Source: a virus
Lineage: Duplodnaviria > Caudoviricetes
Reading direction: 5' to 3' (one strand)
DNA length: 64,000 nt
Virus record (IMG/VR): IMGVR_UViG_3300022752_000016
Under the pieces are notes generated by a model that saw only the letters and a list, made by a program, of their open reading frames with translations, did no database searches and was not told where the DNA came from. Every line of letters begins with the position of its first letter. Position 1 is the first letter of the stretch. Both the position numbers and the translations under genes were made by a program. Below, piece by piece: positions 18,236 through 62,110 of this stretch.

Positions 18236-18237
18236 TT

Positions 18238-19719: not shown

Positions 19720-19727
19720 GTAGACTT

Positions 19728-25774: not shown

Positions 25775-25813
25775 TAAGGAAATATCCATAAGGAAATATC
25801 CATAAGGAAATAT
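25772..25813 (+). repeat. Three perfect copies of CCATAAGGAAATAT (14 nt)
   Basis: 25772-85, 25786-99, 25800-13; first copy begins at the tmRNA CCA, last ends at ATG 25814. Confidence 0.95.
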
Positions 25814-25999: not shown

Positions 26000-26000
26000 T

Positions 26001-32133: not shown

Positions 32134-32134
32134 A

Positions 32135-32302
32135 ATGAAGAAACAACTAGGGGGTAAAAAGTATTTTTATGCCCTTGGTCAGTGGGCCCGTAGTAAAGGG
32201 CTCACCAAGGATCAAGGTATGAGTGTTTTAGGTCTTAAAGAAGGGACCTATGCTAGTATTGCGTATGACAAAGGTTATCGTGGACTATCAACTAAAGGTT
32301 GA
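32135..32302 (+). CDS. 55-aa basic hypothetical protein (MKKQLGGKKYFYALGQW...), not in ORF track
   Basis: ATG 1 nt after the MoxR stop; fills the gap up to the next promoter. Confidence 0.55.
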   Translation: MKKQLGGKKYFYALGQWARSKGLTKDQGMSVLGLKEGTYASIAYDKGYRGLSTKG

Positions 32303-32327
32303 CAGTAATTCTTTGTATTGCTATACT
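32299..32327 (+). promoter_or_regulatory. Sigma70-type early promoter
   Basis: TTGACA-17-TATACT. Confidence 0.8.
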
Positions 32328-32348
32328 AGTAAAAATTAAGGAGCTTAT

Positions 32349-42198: not shown

Positions 42199-42240
42199 TA
42201 AAGATTGTTTAAATATTACAAGAGATTTATAAATAATTTT

Positions 42241-46782: not shown

Positions 46783-47799
46783 ATGGCAAGTTTAGCAGAT
46801 ATCCGCGCAAGAATCGCAGCGCAAGAAAACAAAACACAAAAAGGTCAAATCACGACCGACAACGCAGTATATCCTCACTGGAATATGGAAGAAGGTACAG
46901 TTGCTACTATTCGTTTCCTACCAGATGCAGATTCAAACAATACGTTCTTTTGGGTAGAACGTCAAATCATCAAGCTTCCCTTCAATGGGCTTAAGGGTGA
47001 TCCTAATGTAAAACAAATTACTGTACAAGTACCTTGTGCTGAGATGTATGGCGATACTTGCCCAGTACTAACTGAAGTTCGTCCTTGGTATAAAGATGAA
47101 ACACTAAAAGAAATGGCAAATAAATATTGGAAAAAGCGTAGTTATCTATTCCAAGCTTTTGTTCGTCAAAATCCAATTGGTGATGATAAGACACCAGCTA
47201 ATCCAATTCGTAGACTTGTGATAAGTCCACAGATTTTCACAATTATCAAATCAAGTTTGATGGATCCTGAAATGGAAGAATTACCCACTGATTATGTACG
47301 TGGGTTGGATTTTAATATTAAGAAAACTAGTAAAGGTGGTTATGCTGATTATTCAACAAGTAACTGGGCACGTAAAGAAAGTCCATTGACTGAAGCAGAG
47401 CAAGCAGCAATTGAAGCACATGGATTATTTAATCTAGCAGATTTCTTACCAAAGCGTCCTAATGAAGCAGAATTGAATATTATTAAAGAAATGTTTGAAG
47501 CTTCGGTAGATGGGCAACCTTATGACAATGATCGTTGGGGTTCGTATTATCGTCCCTTTGGAGTTGATGCTCCGCAACATCAGGTAGATAGTGATAGCGA
47601 AACTGTTACAGAAAAGAAAGTATCAGTTTCAGTTTCAAAGCCTGCTGTTTCGAAGCCTGATGTTAAAGAAGAAACTGCTCCATGGGAAGATGAACCAGCT
47701 GAGGCAAGTCAACCTGTTAATATTCCAAAGTCAACATCAAGTGATAAGGCACAAGATATTTTAGCAATGATTCGTGCCCGTCAAAACAAGACAGCCTAA
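46783..47799 (+). CDS. ssb: Single-stranded DNA-binding protein (T4 gp32 family)
   Basis: IRFLPD, VPC.E..G..CPV, YWKKRSY, LDFNIKK..KGGYADYSTS.W. Confidence 0.9.
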   Translation: MASLADIRARIAAQENKTQKGQITTDNAVYPHWNMEEGTVATIRFLPDADSNNTFFWVERQIIKLPFNGLKGDPNVKQITVQVPCAEMYGDTCPVLTEVRPWYKDETLKEMANKYWKKRSYLFQAFVRQNPIGDDKTPANPIRRLVISPQIFTIIKSSLMDPEMEELPTDYVRGLDFNIKKTSKGGYADYSTSNWARKESPLTEAEQAAIEAHGLFNLADFLPKRPNEAELNIIKEMFEASVDGQPYDNDRWGSYYRPFGVDAPQHQVDSDSETVTEKKVSVSVSKPAVSKPDVKEETAPWEDEPAEASQPVNIPKSTSSDKAQDILAMIRARQNKTA

Positions 47800-48093: not shown

Positions 48094-49161
48094 TTGGGGA
48101 AACCGTTCGATGTTAGTAAATTTAGAAAAGATATTACCAAGTCCATTGAGGGACTTAGTATCGGGTTTAACGATCCAACAGATTGGATTAGTACAGGAAA
48201 TCACGCACTTAATTATCTCATTAGTGGTGATTTTAATAAAGGCGTACCTCTTGGTAAAGTTACTGTCTTTGCCGGAGAGTCAGGATCAGGAAAAAGTTAT
48301 ATCTGTGCAGGAAATCTCGTCCGTCACGCACAACAACAAGGGATCTTTGTCGTATTGGTCGATACTGAAAATGCGCTTGATGAAGATTGGTTACATAACT
48401 TGGGAGTTGATACGTCAGAAGAAAAACTATTAAAACTTAATATGGCAATGATTGATGATGTTGCCAAAACTATTAGCGAGTTTATGAAAGGATATCGCAC
48501 TATTCCTAGTGAAGATCGTCCTAAAGTACTTTTTATTATTGATAGCTTAGGAATGTTACTTACTCCTACTGATGTTAATCAATTTGAAGGCGGTGATTTA
48601 AAAGGTGATATGGGTCGTAAACCAAAAGCACTAACCGCACTAGTACGTAATTGTGTAAATATGTTTGGTAGTCACAATGTTGGATTGGTAGCTACAAATC
48701 ATACCTACGCAAGTCAGGATATGTTTGATCCTGACGATAAAATCTCAGGTGGGCAAGGCTTTATCTATGCAAGTTCAATTGTTGTAGCAATGAAAAAATT
48801 GAAACTTAAAGAAGATGAAGATGGTAATAAAACAAGTGAAGTCCTTGGTATTCGTAGTGCTTGTAAAGTAATGAAAACACGTTATGCTAAACCTTTTGAA
48901 AGTGTACAAGTAAAGATTCCATATAGTACAGGAATGAATCCATATAGTGGGTTGTTAGATTTATTTGAAAAATCAGGGCTGCTTGTAAAAGAAGGCAATC
49001 GTTTAAGCTACACTACGTTAGATGGTGAAGTTATCAAACATTTCCGTAAAGGTTGGGAAACTAATACTGATAATTGTTTAGATACGGTTATGAGTGAGTA
49101 TAGTAAAAGAAACGAAAATAAACTAAGTAATGTAACAACTGAGGAGGAAGTTACAGAATGA
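48094..49161 (+). CDS. uvsX: RecA/UvsX recombinase
   Basis: GESGSGKS Walker A, DTENA, IIDSLGML, TNHTY, SGGQG; TTG start with SD AAGGAG. Confidence 0.92.
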   Translation: MGKPFDVSKFRKDITKSIEGLSIGFNDPTDWISTGNHALNYLISGDFNKGVPLGKVTVFAGESGSGKSYICAGNLVRHAQQQGIFVVLVDTENALDEDWLHNLGVDTSEEKLLKLNMAMIDDVAKTISEFMKGYRTIPSEDRPKVLFIIDSLGMLLTPTDVNQFEGGDLKGDMGRKPKALTALVRNCVNMFGSHNVGLVATNHTYASQDMFDPDDKISGGQGFIYASSIVVAMKKLKLKEDEDGNKTSEVLGIRSACKVMKTRYAKPFESVQVKIPYSTGMNPYSGLLDLFEKSGLLVKEGNRLSYTTLDGEVIKHFRKGWETNTDNCLDTVMSEYSKRNENKLSNVTTEEEVTE

Positions 49162-49874: not shown

Positions 49875-50585
49875 ATGGCTAAGATTCAAAATCTTTTTAA
49901 TGATATATTAAATGATACAATATCTGAGGGGACGAATAATATATATATTACAGATTATCCATTATTAGTATTAAGTGCATGTAATTACAGGTTAAAACAA
50001 GAAGATCCTGAATTTAATTCTAATTCTTTACTAGGCAATATTATTATAAATCATGTAACAGATATTGATATAGAGTTTGCAAATAAAATTGGTGACTACT
50101 ATAGTAAAAAATTAATGTTACTTAAATTAAAAGGTAAAGAGTTGACAAAGTTTCGCAAAGAATTAATTACTTTTTTACATGACAATTTTAACCATCAAGA
50201 TGGTAGGTACCATACCCCTGAGAAATTTGCAGGTATGGCTTATAAATTACCTTATTTTTACACATATGACACAACATTAGATATGTTATTTGATTTGAAA
50301 AGTATTCCATATAAGCCTTTTAAAGGTGTTAAGCAATTAAAGTTTGTTACAAAACTTTTTACATCAAGAAAACATTGGGGAAATATTATAGAATATTGGT
50401 TTGTAGATATTGACAATAATAAATATCTTTTAGACTTTAACAAAGAAAATATGTTATGTAGTTTATTAGAAAAGGTAATTGAAAAAAATCAAATTATAGT
50501 ATCAGGTGTATTTGGTGTAAATAGGAAAGACTATGAGTTTTTTGTACCAAGCAAATATACAATGGACTTCAAAAATATTATTTAA
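49875..50585 (+). CDS. Hypothetical protein
   Basis: 236-aa ORF with SD AAGGA. Confidence 0.6.
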   Translation: MAKIQNLFNDILNDTISEGTNNIYITDYPLLVLSACNYRLKQEDPEFNSNSLLGNIIINHVTDIDIEFANKIGDYYSKKLMLLKLKGKELTKFRKELITFLHDNFNHQDGRYHTPEKFAGMAYKLPYFYTYDTTLDMLFDLKSIPYKPFKGVKQLKFVTKLFTSRKHWGNIIEYWFVDIDNNKYLLDFNKENMLCSLLEKVIEKNQIIVSGVFGVNRKDYEFFVPSKYTMDFKNII

Positions 50586-51336
50586 ATTTTTTGTTATCTT
50601 TATCAACTGCTTTAAATAAAGAAATATTAAGCCCCAATTGTTTAGTAAGTTTATTAAAACTTTTCACATCTTTAGGAAGACAGGTTCCACCGTATCCACG
50701 TAAATTTTTATTCACTTCTAAATAATCAGAAGTGGGTGTTCCTCTCAAAATATATGTGTCTTTTATTTTGCTATAATTTGAATTTAATTTTTTACAAATT
50801 TCATACATGCTATTAGCAAAAACTATTTTGGTAGCATTGTATACATTGGAATAATATTTTAGTATTTCTGCCTCAGTTGGTGTAAGACTTACTATGTTTT
50901 TTGGTAAGAACCCATGGCTGGCAACAATTTTTTTAAAAATTTCTTTTCTATGACACCCAATGGCAAGTAAATTGTGATTTATTATAAAATCTTTTTCAGC
51001 ATGAACTTCACGTAAAAATTCAGGAACAAAACAAATATTTAAATTGGTTTCTTTTATTAATTTTTCTGTAGTACCAGGTACTAAGGTAGACTTAATAGCT
51101 ATTATTCCATCAAAGGATATTTTTTGTAAATCTTTTAAAACATTTTTAATTATTTTGTCTGTATACTTATTACCTTTATGTGTAGGAACACAAATATAAA
51201 TAATTTCTGTTTTTTTTAAGGATTTAATATCAGTTTTGTATTTAATATCATGTACAATAACTTTATGACCTAGTAATGTGAAACCTTGTTTACATGCATT
51301 ACCTACAACACCAGCACCTATTATACCAATTTTCAT
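50578..51336 (-). CDS. ugd: UDP-glucose 6-dehydrogenase, short form lacking C-terminal domain
   Basis: GAGVVG Rossmann, KST..PGTT, PEFLRE, K..SN, GYGGTCLPKD catalytic Cys. Confidence 0.82.
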   Translation of the reverse strand: MKIGIIGAGVVGNACKQGFTLLGHKVIVHDIKYKTDIKSLKKTEIIYICVPTHKGNKYTDKIIKNVLKDLQKISFDGIIAIKSTLVPGTTEKLIKETNLNICFVPEFLREVHAEKDFIINHNLLAIGCHRKEIFKKIVASHGFLPKNIVSLTPTEAEILKYYSNVYNATKIVFANSMYEICKKLNSNYSKIKDTYILRGTPTSDYLEVNKNLRGYGGTCLPKDVKSFNKLTKQLGLNISLFKAVDKDNKKFK

Positions 51337-52211
51337 AATGAGTCCAAAGTTAACTTTATCCCTTGTTCTAATGAAATTTTAGGTTTAAAATTAATTATTT
51401 TTTTTAGTTTGTTAGTATCACACAACCGTCTTGATACACTTCCAATAGGAGCATTATTAAGAATAAGATTTTTATTTATTTTTGCATATCTACAAATTAG
51501 TTCTGCAACTTCTTTAATTGTTCTTTCGTCACTGACCCCTATATTTATAATTTCATTATTACAATTTTGAGTTTCTAGAATATTTACAGTGGCATCAACA
51601 GCATCACTTACATACATAAAACTTCTTGTATTAGAGTGTCCGTACAAATTTAAATCTCCTTTTTTAATTCTGCCATAAAACTCTGGTATAAAGTGATTAA
51701 TTTGTCTTGGTCCATAAACATTATGATACCTCAATATAATAAAGTTTTGTTTTGTTTGATGATATGCAGCATTTACTTGTACCTCATTAGCAATTTTGCT
51801 AGCAGCATAGCTCCAGCGTGGATTAGTTACATCACTTATTGATAAAGGAACTTGTTCGTCTGTAGGAATTTTATAATTAAATGTATCAATTGTGCCTGCA
51901 TAGGTTTCACAGCTACTTGAAAATATAAATTTTTCTATCTTACCTGCATATCTATCAAGTAAATATTGAGTTGGCAATAAATTATTTCTAATTACATCAA
52001 AAGGACGCTGGTAAAAAAATTTGGTACCATTTAATGCTGCTAAATGCACAACAATTTCAACATCGGGTAAATTCTTAACATTTTCCCAATTAGATAAATC
52101 AAGACCTGTTTTAATATCTGCCTTGTGTAAATTATATCCTAAATTTTCTAATTTGTCACACAGATGACTTCCAATGAATCCACAACTGCCTGTAACTAAA
52201 ATTGATTTCAT
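51333..52211 (-). CDS. NAD-dependent nucleotide-sugar epimerase/decarboxylase
   Basis: TGSCGFIG, FSSS, YAASK (YxxxK), RYHNVYGP. Confidence 0.88.
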   Translation of the reverse strand: MKSILVTGSCGFIGSHLCDKLENLGYNLHKADIKTGLDLSNWENVKNLPDVEIVVHLAALNGTKFFYQRPFDVIRNNLLPTQYLLDRYAGKIEKFIFSSSCETYAGTIDTFNYKIPTDEQVPLSISDVTNPRWSYAASKIANEVQVNAAYHQTKQNFIILRYHNVYGPRQINHFIPEFYGRIKKGDLNLYGHSNTRSFMYVSDAVDATVNILETQNCNNEIINIGVSDERTIKEVAELICRYAKINKNLILNNAPIGSVSRRLCDTNKLKKIINFKPKISLEQGIKLTLDSL

Positions 52212-52256: not shown

Positions 52257-52892
52257 ATGAAACCTAAGATAAAAATATTTTTAAATCATCCTGAGTGTAG
52301 TATAGAGTGTGGTGCAGGAATGTACCATGCTCTTAATAAAGATTTTCGTATAGACTTTTTTACAAAAGACGATATTAAACCCAAATTATTTAGAAACTTA
52401 GAAATTATTGCCTTCCCTGGCGGTATTGGTGATAGTGATAAATTTGATAAAATTCTTAAACACAACCAAGATTACATTATTGAATTTGTAAAAAATAATG
52501 GAAGATACTTAGGTATTTGTATGGGTGCTTATTGGGCGGGTAGTCATTATTTTAATATACTTAAAAATGTAGAACCTGTACAATATATTAAAAGACCTAG
52601 GGCAAATATTAAAAGAAGTTACGGTACCACAACAAAAATAAATTGGCTAGGTAACGAACATAAAATGTATTTTTATGATGGCTGTGCATTGATTGGCAAT
52701 GAAAGTAAATTTAAAGTAATAGCAAGATATAGTAATAAAGATCCAATGGCTATCATTCAGAAAAACATTGGGTTAATAGGTTGTCATCCTGAAAGTATGC
52801 CAACTTGGTATAATAAAAAATATCTTTCAGATAAATGGCACAATTACCATCATCATTATTTGTTATTAGACTTCACAAAACGATTATTGTAA
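52257..52892 (+). CDS. Class I glutamine amidotransferase-like protein (BPL_N-like)
   Basis: FPGG, YLGICMGAY nucleophile elbow, GCHPE. Confidence 0.75.
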   Translation: MKPKIKIFLNHPECSIECGAGMYHALNKDFRIDFFTKDDIKPKLFRNLEIIAFPGGIGDSDKFDKILKHNQDYIIEFVKNNGRYLGICMGAYWAGSHYFNILKNVEPVQYIKRPRANIKRSYGTTTKINWLGNEHKMYFYDGCALIGNESKFKVIARYSNKDPMAIIQKNIGLIGCHPESMPTWYNKKYLSDKWHNYHHHYLLLDFTKRLL

Positions 52893-52920
52893 TACTTTTG
52901 TAATAATAATATGATAGTAT
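52887..52920 (+). promoter_or_regulatory. Putative Pho box with -10 element
   Basis: TTGTAAT-ACTT-TTGTAAT (11-bp period), then 10 nt, then TAGTAT, as in PhoB promoters. Confidence 0.6.
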
Positions 52921-52951
52921 ATATGTAAATACGACAACATATAAAAGGAGA

Positions 52952-55168
52952 ATGCGTATGTTACAACAAGTAGTACAAGAAGAAAACACTTCTAACAATG
53001 AGCATATTAATGACATTGTAAATCAAATATTACAAGATCCCAAACGCCGAACTTTTTTAAAAACAGGTTCGGCGTTTTTAACTGCTGCCACAGGCGCAAC
53101 TTTAGCAGGTTGTGCTAGTGGAGATGACACCTTAACTGTGTCACATCTCAATTTTCCTGCTGTAGCTAAAAATATAGCAGATAAAATTACATTACCACCA
53201 GGTTATCAATATTCAATAGTACATGCTACCGGAGATAGACTGACTAGTAGTGTAGGTGCTTATACCAATAAAGGAACTGAAACTGATGATTGGTCTAACA
53301 GAGTAGGTGACCATCATGATGGTGTAGAATTATTTCACCTAGATAGTGCAGGTAAACGTACAAATCAAATGACTGATCGTGCTTTATTAGTTATGAATCA
53401 TGAAAGTTCAGCAGACGCACACTTCTTTCACCCAAATGGACAAACCAGTAATGGAACTACCGGCAAAAAGTACGACCAATTTGGAAGTTGGGATTTAGGG
53501 GTTCGTCCTGGACTTGAAGCATTAAAAGAAATAAATCATCACGGCGTTAGTGTTGTTGAAATTAATAAGAGTAGCAATGGTTGGTCTTATAAATTAGATA
53601 GCGGGTTTAATAGACGTATTACTCCTCAAACAGTAATGAAAATTGCTGGACCTGTTAATGAACTTAGTAACATTAAAGCATTATTAGCAACCAAATATGA
53701 TCCAACAGGTGCTACAAGTCGTGGTACATTAAACAATTGTGGTACAGGCATTACACCATGGGGTACTTTCTTAACATGCGAAGAAAATTGGGCTACCTAT
53801 TTCGCTATGCCTAAAGGTAGCGTTGCTCCAGATGCACGTATGGCGCAGAGCCGTGCTAGATATGGTGTTCGTAACGCAGCTATTGCCGATACTGCCACAA
53901 CAAGTAATACACAAGGATGGCACACTGTAACCGACATGCCCGATACCGCACAAAGATTTAGTCGTTGGGATGTAAGTGTAAAGGGAGCTACAGACAAAGA
54001 TGATTTTCGTAATGAACCACATACGTTTGGTTACATCGTAGAAATTGATCCAACTAACCCAACAAGTCAACCAGTAAAGCGTATTGCTTTAGGTCGTACA
54101 GCACATGAAGCAGCAGTATATGGAAAATTAGTTGCAGGTCAACCAGTAACTTTTTACATGGGATGTGACAGTCGAAATGAGTATATCTATAAGTGGGTAA
54201 GTAATCAACCATGGAATCCAGCCGATGCTAACGGTGGTTTGGCAGCAGGTGACAAATATTTAAATGATGGCAAACTGTACGCAGCTAAATTTAATAATGA
54301 TGGAACTGGTGTATGGTTAGAATTAAGCATTACAAATCCTCTTATTGCAGGATATTCAACTTTTGTATTTAAAAACCAAGCTGAAGTTTATGTTTTTACT
54401 AGACTTGCTGCTGACGCAGTTGGTGCCACCAAAATGGATCGCCCAGAATGGGGTGCTGTAAATCCTGCTAATGGTGAAGTGTATTTTGCTTTAACAAATA
54501 ATAGTTCTGCAAATCGTACGCCTTCTACAGTTAATGCAGCTAACCCACGTAGTTATGCTGATCCAGATGGCAAAAAAGGTTCAGGCAATCCTAATGGGCA
54601 CATTATTCGTTGGCGTGAAGAAACTAGTGGATTTAAGTGGGATATTTTCTTATTTGGTTCAGAAGAGGATAATTCTCAAAGTAATGTCAGCAAACTGACT
54701 GCCAATAATAGTTTTAGTAGCCCAGATGGATTATGGTTTAGTCGTGCTACTGGCTTATGCTGGATTCAAACTGACGATGGTGCATATACTGATGAAGTTC
54801 ATAATCAATTACTTGTTGCTATCCCTGGTAAAGTTGGCGATGGTCAGGCAATTACAGTCAATAACAGTCTAAGTGGTGCTACTGGCACACAAGCAACATT
54901 TGTTGGTGCTGAATTAGGGGAAACTAAATTACGTAGATTCATGACTGGTCCTGCTGGTTGCGAAATTACTGGTATTACTGAATCAGCAGATGGTCGTGCT
55001 ATCTTTGTAAATGTTCAGCATCCTGGCGAAGATACTTCGGCAGCATTTTGGACAGGAGGAGCGCCACAAAGTCAATGGCCAGGTAATGCTAATTATGGGA
55101 TAACTGGTCGTCCTCGCTCAGCCACAATTTGTATTACAAGGGTTGACGGAGGCCTAATAGGCGTATAA
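52952..55168 (+). CDS. phoX: PhoX alkaline phosphatase (Tat lipoprotein)
   Basis: KRRTFLK Tat motif, LAGC lipobox, GDHHDG, TPWGTFLTCEEN, KMDRPEW, SPDGL, GCEITG, NVQHPGE. Confidence 0.93.
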   Translation: MRMLQQVVQEENTSNNEHINDIVNQILQDPKRRTFLKTGSAFLTAATGATLAGCASGDDTLTVSHLNFPAVAKNIADKITLPPGYQYSIVHATGDRLTSSVGAYTNKGTETDDWSNRVGDHHDGVELFHLDSAGKRTNQMTDRALLVMNHESSADAHFFHPNGQTSNGTTGKKYDQFGSWDLGVRPGLEALKEINHHGVSVVEINKSSNGWSYKLDSGFNRRITPQTVMKIAGPVNELSNIKALLATKYDPTGATSRGTLNNCGTGITPWGTFLTCEENWATYFAMPKGSVAPDARMAQSRARYGVRNAAIADTATTSNTQGWHTVTDMPDTAQRFSRWDVSVKGATDKDDFRNEPHTFGYIVEIDPTNPTSQPVKRIALGRTAHEAAVYGKLVAGQPVTFYMGCDSRNEYIYKWVSNQPWNPADANGGLAAGDKYLNDGKLYAAKFNNDGTGVWLELSITNPLIAGYSTFVFKNQAEVYVFTRLAADAVGATKMDRPEWGAVNPANGEVYFALTNNSSANRTPSTVNAANPRSYADPDGKKGSGNPNGHIIRWREETSGFKWDIFLFGSEEDNSQSNVSKLTANNSFSSPDGLWFSRATGLCWIQTDDGAYTDEVHNQLLVAIPGKVGDGQAITVNNSLSGATGTQATFVGAELGETKLRRFMTGPAGCEITGITESADGRAIFVNVQHPGEDTSAAFWTGGAPQSQWPGNANYGITGRPRSATICITRVDGGLIGV

Positions 55169-55196
55169 AATATCAATCACACACAAAGGAAAAACA

Positions 55197-56201
55197 ATGA
55201 AAAAATTTATATTGGCTCTTGCGACCATATTTTTCGCAATTTCAGCACAGGCACAAATTACAGGTGCAGGTGCTACATTCCCTTATCCGATCTATGCTAA
55301 ATGGGCAGAAGCCTATCAAAAGCAAACAAGCGTCGGTCTTAATTATCAAAGCATTGGTAGTTCGGGGGGAATCCGTCAAATTAATGCCAAGACTGTAACA
55401 TTTGGAGCAACAGATGCGCCAGTTAAAGGTGAAGACCTTGATAAGAACGGTCAAGTTCAATTTCCTGTTATCATTGGCGGTACTGTGCCCGTTATTAATC
55501 TTGACGGTTTTAAGCCAAGTGAACTTCGCATTACAGGTGCTGTCTTGGCAGAAGTTTTTATGGGAAACATTGTTAAATGGAATGATCCGAAATTATCACA
55601 ATTAAACCCAGGTAAAAATTTACCTGATCTTAATATAACGGTAGTGCATCGTGCTGATGGTTCTGGTACAACATTTAATTTTACTGATTATCTAACTGAA
55701 GTAAGTCCTGCTTGGAAGGACAAGGTTGGTAAAGGTGCAGCAGTTAAATGGCCTGCTAATAGTTCTGTTGGTGGAAAAGGTAACGAAGGTGTTGCAGCTA
55801 ATGTTAATAGAGTTAAAGGTGCAATTGGATATGTTGAATATGCTTATGTTAAAAAGAATAACATGAATTATATGAAACTACAAAACAAAGCAGGTAACTT
55901 TGTTGACCCTGATGATACAACATTTGCTGCCGCAGCAGCAGGTGCAGATTGGTTCTCAGTTCCAGGAATGGGATTGAGTATTGTAAATCAAGGCGGCAAA
56001 GATACTTGGCCCATAACAACAGCTAGCTTTATTATAATGCATAAAGATCCTGCTGATAAAAAGGCTAGCCAAGAAGTCATCAAGTTCTTTGACTGGGCAT
56101 TTAGGAATGGTGCCAAAATGAGTGCGGATCTTGATTATGTTCATTTACCAGAGAAATTACAGAATGAAATACGTACAAAAGTATGGACTCAAATTAAGTA
56201 A
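55197..56201 (+). CDS. pstS: Phosphate ABC transporter substrate-binding protein
   Basis: GAGATFPYP, YQSIGSSGG, HRADGSGTT, GKGNEGV, IGYVEY. Confidence 0.95.
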   Translation: MKKFILALATIFFAISAQAQITGAGATFPYPIYAKWAEAYQKQTSVGLNYQSIGSSGGIRQINAKTVTFGATDAPVKGEDLDKNGQVQFPVIIGGTVPVINLDGFKPSELRITGAVLAEVFMGNIVKWNDPKLSQLNPGKNLPDLNITVVHRADGSGTTFNFTDYLTEVSPAWKDKVGKGAAVKWPANSSVGGKGNEGVAANVNRVKGAIGYVEYAYVKKNNMNYMKLQNKAGNFVDPDDTTFAAAAAGADWFSVPGMGLSIVNQGGKDTWPITTASFIIMHKDPADKKASQEVIKFFDWAFRNGAKMSADLDYVHLPEKLQNEIRTKVWTQIK

Positions 56202-56294
56202 TGTAATAATACTGTAAACTAATCAAAAGTTAAATTTTGTAAATAGTTATAGAGAATCACAAATTCTCTATAACCCACATCAAGGAGTCACAAA

Positions 56295-56519
56295 ATGAAA
56301 CTAGAAATGAGAGCTTGGGATTTAGACGTAAAATTAGAATTACAGGATGATGATGCAGTAGACCAATTACAAGTTTTGGAAGTTGTTAAAAATTTATTAG
56401 ACACACTTTCACAATTTGAAAAAGTCAATGTAGTAATTAAACAAATTGAAGAAACAACAGAAGAATTAGATAATAATTCTGATAACGTTGAAGCAATTAC
56501 TCATACAACAGGTTACTAA
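56295..56519 (+). CDS. Acidic hypothetical protein
   Basis: SD AAGGAG; 74 aa. Confidence 0.65.
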   Translation: MKLEMRAWDLDVKLELQDDDAVDQLQVLEVVKNLLDTLSQFEKVNVVIKQIEETTEELDNNSDNVEAITHTTGY

Positions 56520-56535
56520 AAGGTCCCCCAATGAA

Positions 56536-57306
56536 ATGGTTTATAATGCTATCTTTATATCAGATGTACACTTGGGCACAAAAGGATGTAAAGCCGAAGA
56601 ATTAATTAATTTTTTGAAAAACAACACCGCTTCAAAGTTATATCTTATAGGTGATATATTAGACGGCTGGAAAATACAACAAAATAAATGGGTCTGGAAA
56701 CAGACCCATTCCAATGTAATCCGTAGAATTTTAGGTCATGCTAAAAATGGTACAGAAGTTTTCTATGCTATAGGAAATCATGATGAATTTATACGTCCTT
56801 TACTTCCATATAAGATAAGTTTTGGCAAAATTAAACTTGCTAATCAGTTTACACATAATGGTATAGATGGGAAGAAATATTTAGTTGTTCACGGAGATTT
56901 ATTTGATGGAATAACAAGGCTCGCTCCTTGGATTAGTTTTTTGGGGGATAGAGCCTATGACATGCTTCTTTCACTTAATACCACATTTAATCGTATTCGC
57001 CATCGTTTTGGGTTCGGCTATTGGAGTCTTAGCAAATATCTTAAGCACAGAGTCAAACGGGCTATGGATTTTATGTTTAGATTTGAGAATAATATGGCTG
57101 ATTATTGTATTAAGCGTGGGTATGATGGAGTTATATGTGGTCATATACATTATGCCGAAATTAAAACAATAAAGGGTATAACATATATGAATGATGGTGA
57201 TTGGGTAGAAAGTTGTAGCGCACTAGTAGAAAATGTCAATGGAAGTTGGGAAATTATATATTGGACAAAAAAGCAAGATGTGGATATTGTTCCTAGTGGT
57301 AGTTAA
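56536..57306 (+). CDS. plcP: LpxH-like metallophosphoesterase, PlcP-type phospholipase C
   Basis: FISDVHLG, IGDILDGW, GNHDE, HGD, CGHIH, YMNDGDWVESCSAL; context with a GT4 gene after pstS; start moved to ATG 56536. Confidence 0.75.
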   Translation: MVYNAIFISDVHLGTKGCKAEELINFLKNNTASKLYLIGDILDGWKIQQNKWVWKQTHSNVIRRILGHAKNGTEVFYAIGNHDEFIRPLLPYKISFGKIKLANQFTHNGIDGKKYLVVHGDLFDGITRLAPWISFLGDRAYDMLLSLNTTFNRIRHRFGFGYWSLSKYLKHRVKRAMDFMFRFENNMADYCIKRGYDGVICGHIHYAEIKTIKGITYMNDGDWVESCSALVENVNGSWEIIYWTKKQDVDIVPSGS

Positions 57307-57463
57307 TACATTTGATACGAATGATGTACCTGGTAGAATCCAATTACAGTTTAAGGATCAACAAAGTTGTGAATTCGCACTGGCTAATATGACAAGTTAT
57401 GTTAAATTTCCTTGGTTTAAAGTAGAGGGTAAATGTGAAAAAAATATTAATAATAACAGATAA
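57278..57463 (+). CDS. Small exported/membrane hypothetical protein
   Basis: MWILFLVVV start, two Cys; between plcP and GT4. Confidence 0.55.
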   Translation: MWILFLVVVNTFDTNDVPGRIQLQFKDQQSCEFALANMTSYVKFPWFKVEGKCEKNINNNR

Positions 57464-58430
57464 TTTACAGGATCAAATAAATGGTGTGGTTACCACTTAC
57501 AAAAATCTTGAAGCGTGTGCGGTTCGTGACAACTATAACATTGTTTATATTACTCCCGATGAGTTCCGCCACTTTGATTGCCCTATCTATAACGAAGTCA
57601 AGATTGCCTTTCCGAGGAAAATGGGCGAGAAGATTGAGGAGATATCTCCACATCATATCCACATCGCCACAGAAGGTCCTGTGGGTCTGTGGGCTAGAGC
57701 ATATCTTACAAAACATAATTATAATTACAATACTGCTTATCATACTAAATTTCCTGAAGGATTACATACCTTGGTTGGACTTCCTGAGTCTATTACTTGG
57801 CGCTATATAAAATGGTTTCATAAACATACAGGAAAAGTTCTTACAACCACTAATTCTATGGTTGAACAATTACAACAAAAAGGATTAAAAAATCTTGTAC
57901 CATGGACTAGAGGTGTTGATAGAGAAATATTTTCTTCTAAATTACGAACAAAAACAGCGGAAAAACTTAATCTTGTCTGTGTAAGTCGAATTAGTAAAGA
58001 AAAAAACTTAGACGATTTTTGTAGTATCGATTATTTTCATGCACATAAAATAATGGTAGGTGATGGTCCTTATCGTAGGGAATTAGAAAAGAAATATCCT
58101 AACGTAGAATTTGTAGGATTTAAAACAGGAGTAGAATTGGCTACATATTTTGCAAACGCCGATGTATTTGTTTTTCCAAGTCGTTGGGAAACATTTGGTA
58201 TCGTTATGATTGAGGCTATGGCGTGTGGTACACCTGTTGCGGCATATCCCTGTCAAGGACCACTGGATGTTGTAGATCATGGGATAACAGGGTTCTTACG
58301 AGATAATCTTAAACAGGCTATTACAGAATGTTTAACATTAGATAGGTATACAGTTGAAAAGCATAGTTTAAAATACAGCTGGGATAAAGCTTGGGAAATT
58401 TTTAAAAATAATTTAATACCATTAAAGTAA
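57435..58430 (+). CDS. agt: GT4 glycosyltransferase, Agt-like diacylglycerol glycosyltransferase
   Basis: IITD...QINGVVTT, HIATEGPVG, TAYHTKFPE, VSRISKEKN, ETFGIVMIEAMACG. Confidence 0.75.
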   Translation: MKKILIITDNLQDQINGVVTTYKNLEACAVRDNYNIVYITPDEFRHFDCPIYNEVKIAFPRKMGEKIEEISPHHIHIATEGPVGLWARAYLTKHNYNYNTAYHTKFPEGLHTLVGLPESITWRYIKWFHKHTGKVLTTTNSMVEQLQQKGLKNLVPWTRGVDREIFSSKLRTKTAEKLNLVCVSRISKEKNLDDFCSIDYFHAHKIMVGDGPYRRELEKKYPNVEFVGFKTGVELATYFANADVFVFPSRWETFGIVMIEAMACGTPVAAYPCQGPLDVVDHGITGFLRDNLKQAITECLTLDRYTVEKHSLKYSWDKAWEIFKNNLIPLK

Positions 58431-58467: not shown

Positions 58468-58496
58468 TTGACTTTCTAATATAAATATTGTACAAT
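58468..58496 (+). promoter_or_regulatory. Nested sigma70 (TTGACT-17-TACAAT) and late (TATAAATA, 58480) promoters for ahpC
   Basis: Direct motif match. Confidence 0.6.
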
Positions 58497-58517
58497 TACA
58501 CACACAAGGAGAAAACT

Positions 58518-59111
58518 ATGAAAACAGTTGGAGATGTACTTAAGCCTTTCGCAATGACAGGCGTAAAACCAGGAGCGTTAACCTTAGATAATGCTTTTGA
58601 AACAATCACAGAAAAATCTTTTGAAGGTAAGTGGAAAGTAATCGTTTACTATCCTAAAGATTTTACTTTTGTATGCCCCACAGAAATTGTAGCATATGAT
58701 AAACTTAACAGTGACTTTGCTGACCGTGATGCTGTATTATTAATTGGTAGCACAGATAATGAGTTTTGTAAATTAGCATGGCGTAATGCACATGAAGATT
58801 TGAAAAAAACTAATAGCTGGATGTTTGCTGATACAGCAAGAGAAGCAGATGAGAGTTATAACGTTGAAAGTGATAAATGGGAGCATAAGCTTCCAGAAGG
58901 TTTAGCTCAACAACTTGGTATTTTTTACAAACCTGCAGGAGCAGCATTAAGAGCTACATTTATTGTTGATCCTAATAATGTTATTCAACATGTTACTGTA
59001 AACAATTTAGATGTTGGTCGTAACCCAGATGAAACACTACGCATTTTAGATGCACTACAAACTGGTGAACTTTGCCCATGTAGTCGTCCAATAGGCGGTG
59101 AAACACTTTAA
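58518..59111 (+). CDS. ahpC: Peroxiredoxin AhpC
   Basis: YPKDFTFVCPTEI, GELCPC; SD AAGGAG before ATG 58518. Confidence 0.93.
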   Translation: MKTVGDVLKPFAMTGVKPGALTLDNAFETITEKSFEGKWKVIVYYPKDFTFVCPTEIVAYDKLNSDFADRDAVLLIGSTDNEFCKLAWRNAHEDLKKTNSWMFADTAREADESYNVESDKWEHKLPEGLAQQLGIFYKPAGAALRATFIVDPNNVIQHVTVNNLDVGRNPDETLRILDALQTGELCPCSRPIGGETL

Positions 59112-59278
59112 TGTTTAAGTATGAAACTCTTTGGGATTTTTACAAAGTAAAATTTTTATTTCTTTTAATTTCTTTTGTAGTAGCAATAATTTTATCAAAC
59201 TATTTGTATAACCATGATAAAGATAAAAAGATGATTGAGTTTCATAAAACATTTATTAAAAAATATTATGGAGAATGA
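59111..59278 (+). CDS. 55-aa single-TM protein between ahpC and ahpD, not in ORF track
   Basis: TAATG overlap with ahpC; KFLFLLISFVVAIILS helix; stop 1 nt before ahpD TTG. Confidence 0.55.
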   Translation: MFKYETLWDFYKVKFLFLLISFVVAIILSNYLYNHDKDKKMIEFHKTFIKKYYGE

Positions 59279-59279
59279 G

Positions 59280-59795
59280 TTGAACTGGATAGATCAAATT
59301 AAAGCAAGCATTCCTGAACATTGTAAGGATAATAAACTTAACCTTGATAGTGTAATGAACCGTAGTGGTTTGGATGAGATAGATGCTCATGGGTGTGCGT
59401 TAGCCGCAGCGATATCTGCAGGCAATGGAGAATTAGCTTATGACATTCAATTAAATGGTCCTTTAAAAGGCACTAAAGAATCTGAGGCAGCAAAAACGGC
59501 AGCAGCGTTAATGGGTATTAATAATGTATTTTATCCATTTATTGAAATGTGTAATGATCCTGATTTAAAAGGATTGCCACCTGGATTGCGTATGAATGCT
59601 TATGCTAACCATGGCGGAGTCAGTAAAAAGCAATTTGAAATGTATGCGTTAGCAGCAAGTATTGTTGGTAAATGTCATTTTTGTGTAAAAAATCATTATG
59701 ACACATTAAAGAAAGAAGGTCTTACCGTTCAGCAATTACAAGCAATCGGTAAGATTGCTAGTGTAATTGCTAGTATTAATAAGATAGCAGTATAA
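59280..59795 (+). CDS. ahpD: Alkyl hydroperoxidase AhpD
   Basis: DNKLNL, GLRMNAY, SIVGKCHFCVKNH (CxxC...H); probable TTG start after GGAG. Confidence 0.85.
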   Translation: MNWIDQIKASIPEHCKDNKLNLDSVMNRSGLDEIDAHGCALAAAISAGNGELAYDIQLNGPLKGTKESEAAKTAAALMGINNVFYPFIEMCNDPDLKGLPPGLRMNAYANHGGVSKKQFEMYALAASIVGKCHFCVKNHYDTLKKEGLTVQQLQAIGKIASVIASINKIAV

Positions 59796-59933: not shown

Positions 59934-60611
59934 TCAAATTATATACCAATTACTTGAACCGCTATAAATCAAATGAACTGCTTGCCATGGAACTTCTATA
60001 ATATATTGTGTTTCACCATCAATAAATGATCCATCACTAGTGGTTATTGTAATTTTTCGATTACCTAAAGGTGGACCCATTTCAGCTTTTATAATAATTT
60101 CATCACAACCTGAAGGATTTGGGGGAAGTGTAACAGTAACCGGTCCATCACTATTAACGCCAATATAATAATCATCCATCGTAGCAGTGTAGTCTTGGTA
60201 AACCAAAACAGCTTGGCATTTGCAATCACACTGCCCAGGCGGTCCAATAGGTCCTGGAGGCCCTTGTTCACCAGGAGGGCCTGGCTCTCCAGCAGGTCCA
60301 GTCGAGCCTTGTGGGCCCTCAGGTCCAGGTGGTCCTGGTGGACCTTGTTCTCCAATTGGTCCAGGCGGACCTTCAGGACCTTGGGGTCCTGCTGGGCCTG
60401 GTGGTCCAGGGGGGCATTCATCGCATGGATCTCCTTTATCATTATTATTAATTACAATAGTATCATTACCTGGGCCAGTATTAATTGGAATTCTTCCGCC
60501 TGCTAATTGTAATTGAGCATGTTGTAACAGTTTTGGGTCTACTGGTTTACCCATACTCATAGTTAATAATGCCTGTTGCAATTCTACTAATCTTCTATCA
60601 TGTCCGTCCAT
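59934..60611 (-). CDS. Collagen-like protein
   Basis: About 20 uninterrupted Gly-X-Y triplets flanked by CDEC and CDCKC; globular C-terminal domain. Confidence 0.88.
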
Positions 60612-60630
60612 ATCATGATCCTCATTTGAA

Positions 60631-60663
60631 ATAAGGTAATTTCCTTGTGAGAAATTACCTTAT
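60631..60663. other. 13-bp perfect inverted repeat, 7-nt loop
   Basis: ATAAGGTAATTTC-CTTGTGA-GAAATTACCTTAT. Confidence 0.7.
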
Positions 60664-60696
60664 AGTTTATACAACTATTGTGAGTTTTATCTCACA

Positions 60697-61287
60697 TTAT
60701 TGTACATTATTGCTTGTTGCTCTTTGACCAACACCTAATTGTGTACCAAAATTGACCATGCTTGCTTGTGCTTGGCCTAATTGGCTACCAAATGCTTGGA
60801 TTTGTGACTGAAGTGATGCCCACTGAGCTTGGTCAGCGTGGTGTCTCCAGTGACGACCTTCTACAACTTCAGCATTACGCTCAATTAGCATACGATTTAA
60901 ATCTTGTGTTTTCAAATCGTTAATTAATGCACGAGTTTTTTCACCATCAGCATCAATCTTATCGCTAATATAAGTTGATTGTCTAGCAATTTCAGCTTGT
61001 GTTTTAAGAGCAGTAATTTCTGTATCTTTGCTCACACCTGAAAATCCTGCTGCCATTTGCTGCTGTTGTGCAACTACTTGAGCACGTAGGTCAGCGGAAT
61101 CACGACCCACTGTAAAAAAACGGTCGTCAACATTTACTTCAAATGCATTAATACGACTGTTAATATCAAAACGTGCGTCTTTAATTGCACCTAATGTAGC
61201 GTAGCTTTCTTTTAAACCTTCTTTAATTATTTCTGTGTGACCATTTTCTAACATCATTACATCATTTTTGTCTGCTGGATCAGCCAT
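60697..61287 (-). CDS. 196-aa Gln/Ala-rich helical protein (KIDADGEKTRALI motif)
   Basis: SD AGGAG before ATG 61287; the track start lies upstream in low-information sequence. Confidence 0.7.
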   Translation of the reverse strand: MADPADKNDVMMLENGHTEIIKEGLKESYATLGAIKDARFDINSRINAFEVNVDDRFFTVGRDSADLRAQVVAQQQQMAAGFSGVSKDTEITALKTQAEIARQSTYISDKIDADGEKTRALINDLKTQDLNRMLIERNAEVVEGRHWRHHADQAQWASLQSQIQAFGSQLGQAQASMVNFGTQLGVGQRATSNNVQ

Positions 61288-61399
61288 TGTTTTTTTCTCC
61301 TGAAAATTATAGAGGGGCAATTCATCATCACCCTTCATATAATACTTAAAAGAAAAACCTTTACTTTTACCTATGTTTTGGTATAGTATATACTTCAGC

Positions 61400-62110
61400 T
61401 TATGTTTCCAAAGAATTTGCAAACACTGCGAGTTGTGTTCTATTTCTTAACCCATATTTGCGTAATATTGCACCCATGTGTAGTTTTACAGTGCTTTCAG
61501 CAATTTTTAATGTCTTTGCTATAACTTTATTAGTAGCACCACGTTTTGCTACCATTGTAAACACTTGTTTTTGCCTTGGCGTTAACTCTACTTCTGTACT
61601 TTTTTCTTTTTTTGATTTGCGTTTTAACATGTTTTGTATTGGTTTAGGTGTGCTTAAATCACCCGAAACTAATTTTATTTGATCCTCTACTAACATATCC
61701 ATTGTAAACTTATCACACATACTCATTTGTAAACCATCAACTAATTTGCTAATTTCTTTAATATCACTTATTTTTGACTCACTATTGGCACAGGCTAAAA
61801 TCTTAGTAGTTCGCTTTTTGGTTTTATCTTCATCAATAAACAATGTAGATATTGCTAAAATTTTCAATGTATTAATTAAAGCAATTGGGTCCCCGTGTTC
61901 AAAATTACTCAATTCATCAACATCAATAAGAATATAATCAACATCAAATTTTGGATCACTTAATTTTGGAAAAAGTGACTCAATATTTGGATAACTGCAA
62001 TAAGACGCATTGGGAATTTTTTCCTTTGCTAAAGGTATCCAAACATCGTAAAACATTCTGTCAGGATATTTGCCATTATTTACATAAACAATTTTTGTAG
62101 TATGGGGCAT
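61400..62110 (-). CDS. LuxR/NarL-type HTH transcriptional regulator
   Basis: LTPRQKQVF...GATNKVIAKTLKIAESTVKLHMGAILRKYGLRNRTQL; N-terminal receiver-like YILIDVD. Confidence 0.88.
   Translation of the reverse strand: MPHTTKIVYVNNGKYPDRMFYDVWIPLAKEKIPNASYCSYPNIESLFPKLSDPKFDVDYILIDVDELSNFEHGDPIALINTLKILAISTLFIDEDKTKKRTTKILACANSESKISDIKEISKLVDGLQMSMCDKFTMDMLVEDQIKLVSGDLSTPKPIQNMLKRKSKKEKSTEVELTPRQKQVFTMVAKRGATNKVIAKTLKIAESTVKLHMGAILRKYGLRNRTQLAVFANSLET

Follow-up and report, generated by a model that had tools for sequence, protein, structure and literature searches.

A lake phage locus joining phosphate-uptake genes to PlcP- and Agt-type genes of membrane-lipid remodelling behind Pho-box-like repeats

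Known systems

Bacteria encode two enzymes that replace phosphate-containing membrane lipids with sugar lipids, the phosphoesterase PlcP and the glycosyltransferase Agt, which occur together in the "type 2" arrangement of the lipid-renovation operon described by Sebastian et al. 2016 (PMC4796936). Members of these families include PlcP of Sinorhizobium (SMc00171), Phaeobacter (MED193_17359) and SAR11 (PB7211_983), and Agt of Agrobacterium (Atu2297) and SAR11 (PB7211_960, GTcp; PMC8231724). In other operon types, plcP is found next to processive diacylglycerol glycosyltransferases Pgt (GT21) of Mesorhizobium and Agrobacterium. The phage phosphate genes known so far include pstS, represented in PHROG 5385, and phoA, and in cyanomyoviruses these genes appear to be controlled by the host PhoBR system (Zeng and Chisholm 2012). 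Virus surveys have so far listed the plcP-like gene as the cell-wall gene lpxH, and no paper in the literature collection that we searched describes a phage PlcP.

A co-oriented phosphate and lipid gene block in a T4-like phage

We analyzed a 64-kb stretch of DNA (hereafter, the window) from a T4-like phage record in IMG/VR, derived from lake metagenomes (137 kb, CheckV 40% complete). The first-pass annotation of the window had proposed a phage-borne phosphate-starvation regulon composed of PhoX, PstS, an LpxH-like metallophosphoesterase and a GT4 enzyme. All four genes were confirmed on the + strand; however, two small conserved ORFs had been missed. The locus and its neighbors are organized as follows.

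50578-52211 (- strand): possibly linked sugar-nucleotide genes, a short UDP-glucose dehydrogenase-like gene (252 aa, no C-terminal domain) and an NAD-dependent epimerase (292 aa)
52887-52931 (+ strand): Pho-box-like promoter of phoX; TTGTAAT (52887-52893), 4 nt, TTGTAAT (52898-52904), 10 nt, TAGTAT (52915-52920), then TGTAAATA (52924-52931)
52952-55168 (+ strand): phoX, Tat-exported alkaline phosphatase, 738 aa
55197-56201 (+ strand): pstS, periplasmic phosphate-binding protein, 334 aa
56201-56245 (+ strand): Pho-box-like promoter of the orf74-plcP-orf61-agt operon; ATGTAAT, 4 nt, CTGTAAA, then the invariant TAAATA within TGTAAATA (56238-56245)
56247-56273 (+ strand): conserved predicted stem-loop between the promoter and the ribosome-binding site of orf74 (TTATAGAGAAT-CACAA-ATTCTCTATAA)
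56295-56519 (+ strand): orf74, acidic 74-aa protein of unknown function, first gene of the operon
56536-57306 (+ strand): plcP-like Mn-type metallophosphoesterase, 256 aa
57278-57463 (+ strand): orf61, 61-aa protein overlapping the plcP 3' end and the agt 5' end by 29 nt each
57435-58430 (+ strand): agt-like GT4 glycosyltransferase, 331 aa
58488-59795 (+ strand): AhpC-like peroxiredoxin and AhpD-like genes, probably a separate unit behind a T4-late-type TATAAATA at 58480

The PhoX protein matched Pfam PF05787 at 410.7 bits (E 1.6e-122) over residues 67-692, covering the whole profile, and carries a Tat motif KRRTFLK followed by LAGC at the N-terminus. The PstS protein scored 397.6 bits against the NCBIfam equivalog NF008171 (cut-off 339), 366.7 bits against TIGR00975 (cut-off 205) and 231 bits against PHROG 5385 "phosphate transporter subunit," and carries the Sec signal peptide MKKFILALATIFFAISAQAQ. 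The phosphoesterase ORF, which matched Pfam Metallophos, opens at TTG 56488, although the likely start is ATG 56536, giving 256 aa like its homologs. The GT4 matched Pfam Glyco_transf_4 and Glycos_transf_1.

Homologs of orf74 precede plcP in related phages (72 aa in contig L089; also in loci L141-L144, L153, L159, L161 and L177), but orf74 gave no Pfam, NCBIfam or PHROG hit, and its atlas neighbors were viral hypotheticals with scores too low to count. The orf61 product has a hydrophobic N-terminus (MWILFLVVVN...) and two Cys residues. It is called as a 61-aa gene in contigs L087 and L089 and was detected by tblastn between plcP and agt in 49 of 80 viral loci, whereas in the closest named cellular operons no ORF fits, as plcP and agt are 5 nt apart in two of them (L003 and L009). 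No family hit was obtained for orf61. Matches to the sugar-nucleotide genes at 50578-52211 and to the downstream genes were found in Pfam, and for the latter also in NCBIfam. A similar short Ugd (265 aa) directly follows agt on the same strand in contigs L214/L217, but a link to the Agt donor sugar is inference. The AhpC/AhpD-like genes were found near the module in 9-11 of 80 related loci.

The phage context is supported by TerL, gp32 and UvsX at 42-49 kb of the window, and close homologs lie on phage-like contigs of 86-513 kb. The block is not a chance juxtaposition: in the 80 IMG/VR loci closest by GT4, the phosphoesterase lies upstream on the same strand in 79, pstS is adjacent to the module in 30 and phoX is present in 9, and contigs L087/L088 carry phoX in the same gene order. 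At least 592 IMG/VR contigs carry the plcP-like gene. In 74 of 75 informative loci a glycosyltransferase follows it, an Agt-type GT4 in 31 and a GT2/GT21-like gene of 236-256 aa in 43, so that plcP is followed by one of two unrelated glycosyltransferases. This mirrors the bacterial operon types (PMC4796936). The GC3 of the module equals that of phage core genes, which together with the number of contigs carrying the gene is consistent with long residence and selection.

The phosphoesterase belongs to the PlcP family

In order to distinguish PlcP from LpxH, profile scores, phylogeny, invariant alignment columns and a predicted structure were compared. The phage protein scored only 40-46 bits against LpxH models with cut-offs of 134-190. 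Alphaproteobacterial plcP-like loci scored the same 40-46 bits, and a real LpxH (220 bits) coexists with the plcP-like gene in one gammaproteobacterial genome. In the tree, a very long branch with 100% support separates the PlcP-like family, including the phage protein, from Escherichia coli LpxH and 13 other over-cut-off LpxH proteins. The phage protein keeps 63 of 63 PlcP-invariant columns, 42 of which carry another consensus residue or a gap in LpxH, for example GNHDE against GNRDF and CGHIH against HGHTH. The best PDB matches of the AF2 model are all LpxH, at 17-20% identity, and the predicted fold is LpxH-like with the helical insert that forms the lipid-binding lid in LpxH.

The GT4 is nested in the Agt/GTcp clade

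A plcP gene followed by a GT4 was seen in about 35 of 80 named cellular loci and in 15 of 15 loci from 14 unnamed alphaproteobacterial genomes, including HIMB59 and a Pelagibacteraceae genome. All of those GT4s carry the motifs published for the clade of HTCC7211 GTcp and Agrobacterium Agt. The phage GT4 is 33-46% identical over its full length to GT4s directly downstream of plcP in named and unnamed Proteobacteria and is nested in that clade of diacylglycerol glycosyltransferases. No characterized PlcP or Agt sequence could be placed in the trees. The link runs through synteny, published motifs and named congeners. The phage enzyme keeps 63 of 75 Agt-invariant columns and 13 of 14 mutagenized GTcp residues, among them His103, Thr158, Arg159, Trp316, Arg185 and Lys190. 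Its AF2 model has a pLDDT of 92.5, and the nearest reviewed structures are lipid-acceptor GT4s of the MgtA/PimB type, SQD2 and MGlcDAG synthases.

However, the phage protein carries SRISKEKN and FPSRWETFG against the published GRVAxEKN and FPSxTDTFG, and the whole phage clade has FPSxWETFG, such that the catalytic Asp is replaced by Glu and the preceding Thr by Trp. In GTcp, the D256E change removed more than 90% of activity. Eleven otherwise invariant Agt columns are changed, so donor or acceptor may differ, and the lipid product is not certain to be MGDG/GADG.

Pho-box-like repeats and a leader hairpin

Pho-box-like direct repeats (TGTAAY-N5-TGTAAY) precede both phoX and the plcP operon. The pattern TGT[AC]A[ACT]-N5-NGTA[AG] occurs only three times on the + strand of the window, at 52888, 56202 and 59673, and TGTAAATA lies exactly 36 nt downstream of the first two. 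In an alignment of nine related phages, TGT.A of repeat 1, GTA of repeat 2 and TAAATA are invariant. The motif lies upstream of orf74/plcP in 39 of 76 related IMG/VR loci, at 2.02 per kb against a background of 0.049 per kb, an enrichment of about 40-fold. Nevertheless, the motif is TGTAAY rather than TGTCAY, the type carried by cellular plcP loci (TGTCAT-type boxes), and a scan with the E. coli consensus gave no enrichment in this window alone, with 16 hits against 12.4 expected. RNAalifold on the same nine-phage alignment predicted a hairpin of nine pairs, of which seven show compensatory double changes and none is broken in the nine sequences. The repeats and their conservation in relatives support the term "regulon" used in the first-pass annotation.

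Interpretation

Taken together, we favor, with a probability of roughly 0.65, an auxiliary module for phosphorus economy with two arms, wired to the phosphate-starvation signal of the host. In the periplasm, PhoX would release phosphate from external phosphoesters and PstS would feed it to the host PstCAB transporter. At the inner membrane, the PlcP-type enzyme would cut the phospho-head group off host glycerophospholipids, leaving diacylglycerol, to which the Agt-derived GT4 would add a sugar from a UDP-sugar, so that the bilayer is kept as a phosphorus-free glycolipid while the head-group phosphorus becomes available for phage nucleotide synthesis. PlcP, however, releases phospho-head groups rather than free phosphate, and the phosphatase needed in the cytoplasm is not encoded in the module, PhoX being periplasmic. 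Because both arms sit behind Pho-box-like repeats, they are most likely switched on by host PhoB when the infected cell is phosphate-starved. The enzyme activities, PhoB binding, the sugar used and the benefit to the phage are inferred, as are the earlier proposals that the phage mines the membrane for DNA phosphate and may change receptor or superinfection properties.

A less likely possibility is that the pair remodels the envelope for the protection or timing of the phage itself rather than for phosphorus, with the altered Agt making a phage-specific glycolipid, perhaps helped by orf61, that changes membrane properties, receptor function or superinfection by other phages, and PlcP serving only to supply diacylglycerol. 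The fixed clade-specific changes at the catalytic motif and nine other invariant Agt columns and the phage-only small ORF with a hydrophobic N-terminus between the two genes are in line with this view. Published work also shows that lipid remodeling changes phage attachment and membrane protein content in bacteria, and pelagimyophage glycosyltransferases have been interpreted as surface modifiers. The proximity to pstS and phoX, the Pho-box-like sites and the full conservation of PlcP point instead to phosphate economy, although the two readings are not exclusive. It is also unlikely, though possible, that the GT4 no longer glycosylates diacylglycerol and acts on another lipid carrier or a cell-envelope sugar chain, with the phosphoesterase acting on a different phosphodiester. 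The Asp to Glu change with its adjacent Trp, changes in the N-terminal DAWxPQ segment and at Tyr109, and the lack of an NCBIfam equivalog favor this reading. In contrast, the residues crucial for diacylglycerol binding in GTcp (His104, Thr162, Arg163 and Trp320) are all kept, Glu is the normal catalytic residue of other GT4 enzymes such as MshA, the nearest structures have lipid acceptors, linkage with an unchanged PlcP is invariant, and an unrelated GT2/GT21-like enzyme replaces the GT4 at the same position in other phages.

A true LpxH serving lipid A or LPS synthesis, as public annotations ("UDP-2,3-diacylglucosamine diphosphatase") and the nearest solved fold would suggest, is very improbable given the scores 3-5 times below the LpxH cut-offs, the separate clade and the 42 differing columns. 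Moreover, the four alphaproteobacterial genomes searched show no LpxH above the cut-off, and three of them match only weakly at their plcP-like gene. Recently captured host DNA or a binning or assembly artifact without function for the phage is similarly improbable. The genes are of bacterial origin and some close homologs are filed under bacterial MAG names, but those contigs show phage gene content, and this reading is already contradicted by the flanking phage genes, the occurrence in hundreds of IMG/VR contigs, the phage-specific clades, the GC3 and the conservation of every catalytic column of PlcP.

Comparison with known systems

Compared with the bacterial PlcP-Agt operon, the phage locus has the same two families in the same order and strand with a Pho-box-type site upstream, and its GT4, of about 330 aa, keeps the catalytic His, the UDP-binding Arg/Lys/Glu and the diacylglycerol-binding Thr-Arg and Trp. 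It differs in being encoded by a lytic-type T4-like phage, in the Glu and Trp substitutions with nine further fixed changes, in the addition of two phage-only small ORFs, in the TGTAAY box and conserved leader hairpin, and in its physical joining to phoX and pstS. LpxH (e.g., E. coli b0524; PDB 5k8k, 6pj3 and 5b49) shares the calcineurin-like metallophosphoesterase core with a helical insert, whereas the phage protein has an extra YWS segment in addition to the motif differences above.

Relative to cyanomyovirus pstS and phoA, the pstS is of the same phage family type and the host-type Pho box logic inferred here is the same, but PhoX is present rather than PhoA and a lipid-remodeling arm is added. 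A search with PhoX found no true phage in the isolate collection, as the two matching records are mislabeled bacterial contigs. Among isolated phages, Pelagibacter phage Mosig EXVC030M (Mosig_00120) and Synechococcus phage S-SRM01 (QPX48289.1) carry genes of the plcP-like family annotated as LpxH, at 48% and 36% identity, and in Mosig the gene lies beside pstS. No Agt-type GT4 was found in either genome, and neither of the two papers checked, the pelagimyophage survey and the S-SRM01 description, mentions the gene or lipid remodeling. Finally, the GT2/GT21-like enzyme that takes the place of Agt directly after plcP in 43 related viral loci, and that is not present in this window, resembles the arrangement of bacterial operons in which Pgt lies next to plcP (PMC4796936).

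Gene content of the region

The sequence corresponds to bases 32001-96000 of a 137,248-bp IMG/VR virus record that CheckV rates about 40% complete, and its overall G+C is 32%. The first-pass annotation had proposed a co-oriented block of PhoX, PstS, an LpxH-like metallophosphoesterase and a GT4 enzyme forming a phosphate-starvation regulon with membrane lipid remodelling. All four genes are present on the + strand, and two small ORFs that had not been noted lie among them. The features of the region and its surroundings are as follows (window coordinates).

6497-25556 (+): a run of radical-SAM-like proteins, a carbamoyltransferase (18238-19719) and a 1942-aa ORF (19728-25556) in the AT-rich left part of the window
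25713-26132 (+): permuted (two-piece) tmRNA
26329-27342 (+): Gram-negative porin
31036-33614 (+): AAA ATPase plus a DUF2201 metallopeptidase/VWA pair
42205-43794: large terminase
46783-47799: gp32
48094-49161: UvsX
50578-52211 (-): short UDP-glucose dehydrogenase-like gene (252 aa, lacking the C-terminal UDP-binding domain) plus an NAD-dependent epimerase, very AT-rich (26-29% GC)
52257-52892 (+): GATase/BPL_N-like protein of 211 aa
52887-52904: direct repeat upstream of phoX
52952-55168 (+): phoX
55197-56201 (+): pstS
56201-56218: direct repeat upstream of orf74
56247-56273: leader stem-loop
56295-56519 (+): orf74, acidic small protein
56488 (TTG) or, more likely, 56536 (ATG) to 57306 (+): plcP-like calcineurin-like phosphoesterase
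57278-57463 (+): orf61, hydrophobic N-terminus, overlapping both neighbours by 29 nt
57435-58430 (+): GT4 glycosyltransferase
58488-59795 (+): AhpC-like peroxiredoxin and AhpD-like protein
59934-62110 (-): a group including a collagen-repeat protein (59934-60611) and a LuxR/GerE-type regulator (61400-62110)

The large terminase, gp32 and UvsX are of T4 type, and the collagen-repeat protein and LuxR/GerE-type regulator are unusual for a lytic T4-like phage. PhoX matched Pfam PF05787 over the full profile at 410.7 bits and carries a twin-arginine signal (KRRTFLK, then LAGC), whereas PstS scored 397.6 bits against the NCBIfam equivalog NF008171 (cut-off 339) and has a Sec signal peptide. Both products should therefore reach the host periplasm. 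No family was found for orf74 or orf61 in Pfam, NCBIfam, PHROGs or the protein atlas. Neither PhoH nor a fatty-acid desaturase was found in the 137-kb record, although this record is only about 40% complete.

The phosphoesterase is PlcP-like and distinct from LpxH

In order to distinguish PlcP from LpxH, the phosphoesterase was compared with curated LpxH models, placed in a phylogeny and examined for family-invariant residues. The LpxH models TIGR01854 and NF003743 gave only 40.2 bits (cut-off 190) and 46 bits (cut-off 134), respectively. In four alphaproteobacterial genomes the same model reached no cut-off, and in three of these it matched only the plcP-like gene, at 40-46 bits, whereas in a gammaproteobacterial MAG a real LpxH (220 bits) coexists with the plcP-like gene. 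We built a tree of 127 sequences that included E. coli LpxH (b0524) and 13 further LpxH above the cut-off, in which LpxH separated from the plcP-like family at 100% support and the window protein sat in a clade of phage and metagenome sequences (97%) inside that family. The nearest named anchors are plcP-agt loci of HIMB59, a Pelagibacteraceae genome, Kordiimonas sediminis and Sphingomonadales MAGs. The possibility that the protein would cluster with true LpxH was thus not borne out.

All 63 columns that are at least 95% invariant in 91 cellular members are kept in the phage clade, while 42 of them carry another consensus residue or a gap in LpxH; examples are GNHDE against GNRDF, CGHIH against HGHTH and an extra YWS segment. 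The protein matches Pfam Metallophos, and the metal-binding residues D26, H28, G55-D56, G96-N97-H98-D99, H135 and G218-H219-I220-H221 (numbered from TTG 56488) all lie in invariant columns. The AlphaFold model has a pLDDT of 78, lower in the helical insert, and its best 25 PDB matches are all LpxH, at 17-20% identity. The predicted fold is therefore LpxH-like while the family is different.

The glycosyltransferase is a derived variant of Agt

A full-length homolog of the phage GT4 (33-46% identity) lies directly downstream of the plcP-like gene on the same strand in many cellular genomes. It was found in about 35 of the 80 closest named loci, including Kordiimonas, Belnapia, Roseomonas, Rhodospirillaceae and Sphingomonadales (the 80 contained no Sinorhizobium, Agrobacterium, Pseudomonas or HTCC7211), and in 15 of 15 loci from 14 unnamed alphaproteobacterial genomes. 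Two of the low-GC genomes could be named through cluster mates as HIMB59 and a Pelagibacteraceae genome, and one SAR11-type genome (L101, Pelagibacteraceae) carries two convergent plcP-agt copies, at 4871-6674 (+) and 11131-12929 (-), about 4.5 kb apart and with clearly diverged protein pairs. All these cellular GT4s carry the two motifs published for the clade of SAR11 GTcp and Agrobacterium Agt, GRVAxEKN and FPSxTDTFG.

The phage protein instead has SRISKEKN and FPSRWETFG. In the first motif Arg, Glu, Lys and Asn are kept while Gly is Ser and Ala is Ser, a difference fixed in the phage clade. In the second motif the catalytic Asp is Glu and the neighbouring Thr is Trp, and the 120 closest metagenome homologs (68-100% identity) also have W-E wherever the motif is found, whereas all 46 cellular plcP-adjacent GT4s have T-D. 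Of 75 columns nearly invariant in 46 cellular Agt-type proteins, the phage clade keeps 63 and differs in a fixed way at 11. Of the 14 residues mutagenised in GTcp, 13 are kept, including the catalytic His and the diacylglycerol-binding Thr-Arg and Trp (His103, Thr158, Arg159 and Trp316, corresponding to His104, Thr162, Arg163 and Trp320 of GTcp), with His, Arg and Trp in invariant columns; only Asp256 is replaced, by Glu. In GTcp the D256E change removed over 90% of activity, although Glu is the usual residue in other GT4 enzymes. An exact-numbering match to the 14 GTcp residues was not found in any of the SAR11-like GT4s retrieved.

In the tree the W-E clade (100% support) is nested among Agt-type sequences and groups at 95-99% with a jumbo-phage sequence that still has Asp (L109, ADTFG), an 11-kb contig filed under a Fischerella MAG (L003) and a Ruthturnera MAG (L009) (TDTFG), and then with SAR11-like sequences. 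The root is uncertain, as the outgroups, an Acinetobacter GT4 and a faecal-contig GT4, gave very long branches and one was drawn into the ingroup. The structural model is confident (pLDDT 92.5), with two Rossmann-like halves, and its nearest reviewed structures are all lipid-acceptor GT4s (TM 0.82-0.89), namely MgtA/PimB-type mannosyltransferases, plant SQD2 (27% identity) and alpha-monoglucosyl-diacylglycerol synthases. On this basis we consider the enzyme a derived variant of Agt and not a plain member. The Asp-to-Glu/Trp variant gives enzymologists a natural experiment on the catalytic motif of diacylglycerol glycosyltransferases.

Conserved linkage in phages

The GT4 has relatives on 275 IMG/VR contigs. 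In the best 80 loci the plcP-like gene lies upstream on the same strand in 79, and the remaining locus is cut at the contig end; in the window the GT4 start is 129 nt after the plcP stop. Within 8 kb in those 80 loci, orf61 is detected in 49, pstS in 30, phoX in 9, ahpC in 11 and ahpD in 9. A GIY-YIG (LEM-3-like) endonuclease ORF, as in the related viral locus L214 (1278-2141), is inserted between plcP and agt in some relatives, which explains the wider spacing of the two genes there. The GATase/BPL_N-like protein recurs near the module in 23 of 80 and 27 of 80 related viral loci and in a 513-kb contig, and the AAA plus DUF2201 pair lies 2-4 kb from plcP-agt in the 513-kb relative (L107). The short UDP-glucose dehydrogenase also recurs, a similar form (265 aa) directly following agt in the related loci L214/L217, and may supply UDP-glucuronate-type donors.

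At least 592 IMG/VR contigs, mostly from lake metagenomes and including contigs over 500 kb, carry the plcP-like gene. Of a best 80 viral loci, 75 have enough downstream sequence, and of these 31 have the Agt-type GT4 and 43 have instead a 236-256 aa GT2/GT21-like glycosyltransferase at the same place (among loci L223-L302, for example L247:3898-4620 and L261:3743-4453), a second, non-homologous phage version of the pathway. Two unrelated glycosyltransferases at one position behind an unchanged PlcP argue strongly that glycosylation of the PlcP product is the selected function.

Close homologs lie on contigs of 86-513 kb that carry phage-type genes among many small ORFs, such as a GP38 tail-fibre adhesin and the AAA plus DUF2201 pair, and the atlas clusters nearest the GT4 are 95-100% viral. 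GC3 of the module genes (0.20-0.25) equals that of phage core genes (0.19-0.23), indicating that they are old residents of the phage genome. Short contigs filed under bacterial MAGs (Fischerella, Competibacteraceae and Caulobacteraceae; L003, L040 and L089/L090) carry the phage-clade plcP-agt. Gene content marks L089/L090 as phage, whereas for L003 and L040 only their place in the phage clade suggests mis-binned phage DNA. Conversely, two records named 'Acinetobacter phage MD-2021a' (L139, CAKLQH020000017.1, and CAKLQH020000005.1) are bacterial chromosome contigs (nagZ, prc, ndk, rodZ), and their PhoX and GT4 hits are not phage genes.

Putative phosphate-responsive promoters

Upstream of phoX lies TTGTAAT-ACTT-TTGTAAT, followed by 10 nt, TAGTAT and then TGTAAATA, and upstream of orf74 lies ATGTAAT-AATA-CTGTAAA, followed by TGTAAATA at the same 36-nt offset. 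This 11-bp-period repeat pattern occurs only three times on the + strand of the window, in contrast to the T4-late-type TATAAATA, which occurs 15 times on the + strand, several times within about 35 nt of an ORF start. An alignment of nine relatives showed the repeat cores and TAAATA as invariant, and the repeat is found just upstream of orf74/plcP in 39 of 76 viral loci, at 2.02 per kb against 0.049 per kb background. Cellular plcP loci show the canonical TGTCAT-N5-TGTCAT in 12 of 97. The viral repeat, TGTAAY-N5-TGTAAY, deviates from TGTCAY, and a scan with the E. coli consensus gave 16 hits at 14 or more of 18 positions against 12.4 in shuffles, so that there is no enrichment in this AT-rich window and the consensus alone proves nothing. 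The case therefore rests on architecture and conservation among relatives, and PhoB binding is inferred. A generic sigma-70 and terminator scan of 52-60.2 kb was at chance level.

Between the promoter and the ribosome-binding site of orf74 lies a stem-loop whose 9 pairs are all kept in nine sequences, 7 of them through double changes. The AhpC-like and AhpD-like genes directly after agt lie behind a T4-late-type TATAAATA at 58480, and the pair recurs near the module in 9-11 of 80 relatives.

Habitat and host

Near-identical DNA occurs in runs from about six studies labelled lake water, freshwater or aquatic metagenome. One is labelled marine. No RNA run contained the sequence, which is no evidence of silence. 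The host is unknown; three features fit a Gram-negative host, probably a proteobacterium: the phage-borne porin, the exported PhoX and PstS, and the permuted tmRNA. The porin (Pfam Porin_4, E 1.3e-40) lies just after the tmRNA, and porin homologs also lie next to pstS in three related viral loci (L183, L193, L196). The tmRNA matched Rfam RF04321 at 114.9 bits against a gathering score of 47, with the tag peptide ANDDYFYQDLKLAA given by ARAGORN. Permuted tmRNAs appear to be typical of Alphaproteobacteria, some Betaproteobacteria and cyanobacteria, and the gene may therefore hint at the host.

Interpretation and relation to known systems

Taken together, the gene block is confirmed and its reading as a phosphate and lipid-remodelling module is supported. 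The most likely mechanism has two parts under host phosphate stress, in which PhoX and PstS would raise phosphate import while PlcP and the Agt variant would convert host phospholipid to glycolipid, freeing head-group phosphorus; the enzyme activities, PhoB control and the cytoplasmic phosphatase step are inferred. The catalytic-motif change, however, makes the sugar used a real question. A more far-reaching possibility, which we consider only tentative, is that the phage lineage has evolved its own version of the lipid-renovation pathway. In this view the Agt variant, with Trp-Glu in place of Thr-Asp plus 9 other fixed changes, uses another sugar donor, perhaps fed by the phage's short Ugd and epimerase, or makes a glycolipid not made by the host; two phage-only small proteins, orf74 and the membrane-anchored orf61, assist; and a promoter combines a host PhoB site with a conserved structured RNA leader. 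Infection would then leave a virus-specific lipid signature in phosphate-poor lakes.

Among the literature searched, no paper that mentions PlcP also describes it in a phage. The pelagimyophage survey and the paper on Synechococcus phage S-SRM01 do not discuss the gene, a soil-phage phosphorus survey does not list it, and PHROGs v4 has no family for the phosphoesterase, the GT4 or PhoX. Among isolate genomes, only Pelagibacter phage Mosig and S-SRM01 carry the plcP-like gene, and no Agt-type GT4 is found in either genome; S-SRM01 also has a peroxiredoxin 4 kb from its plcP-like gene. Both genes are annotated as LpxH, and a Lake Baikal virome table lists 'lpxH' under LPS biosynthesis, so that the present assignment corrects a systematic annotation error.

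The gene order in the cellular genomes is the 'type 2' plcP-agt arrangement of Sebastian et al. (PMC4796936), and bacterial operons show the same alternative glycosyltransferases behind plcP as the related phages. Known phage phosphate genes act on uptake (pstS, phoA) or are of unclear role (phoH). A phage-encoded phospholipid-to-glycolipid switch would be a different strategy, as it taps an internal phosphorus store of the host while keeping the membrane intact until lysis.
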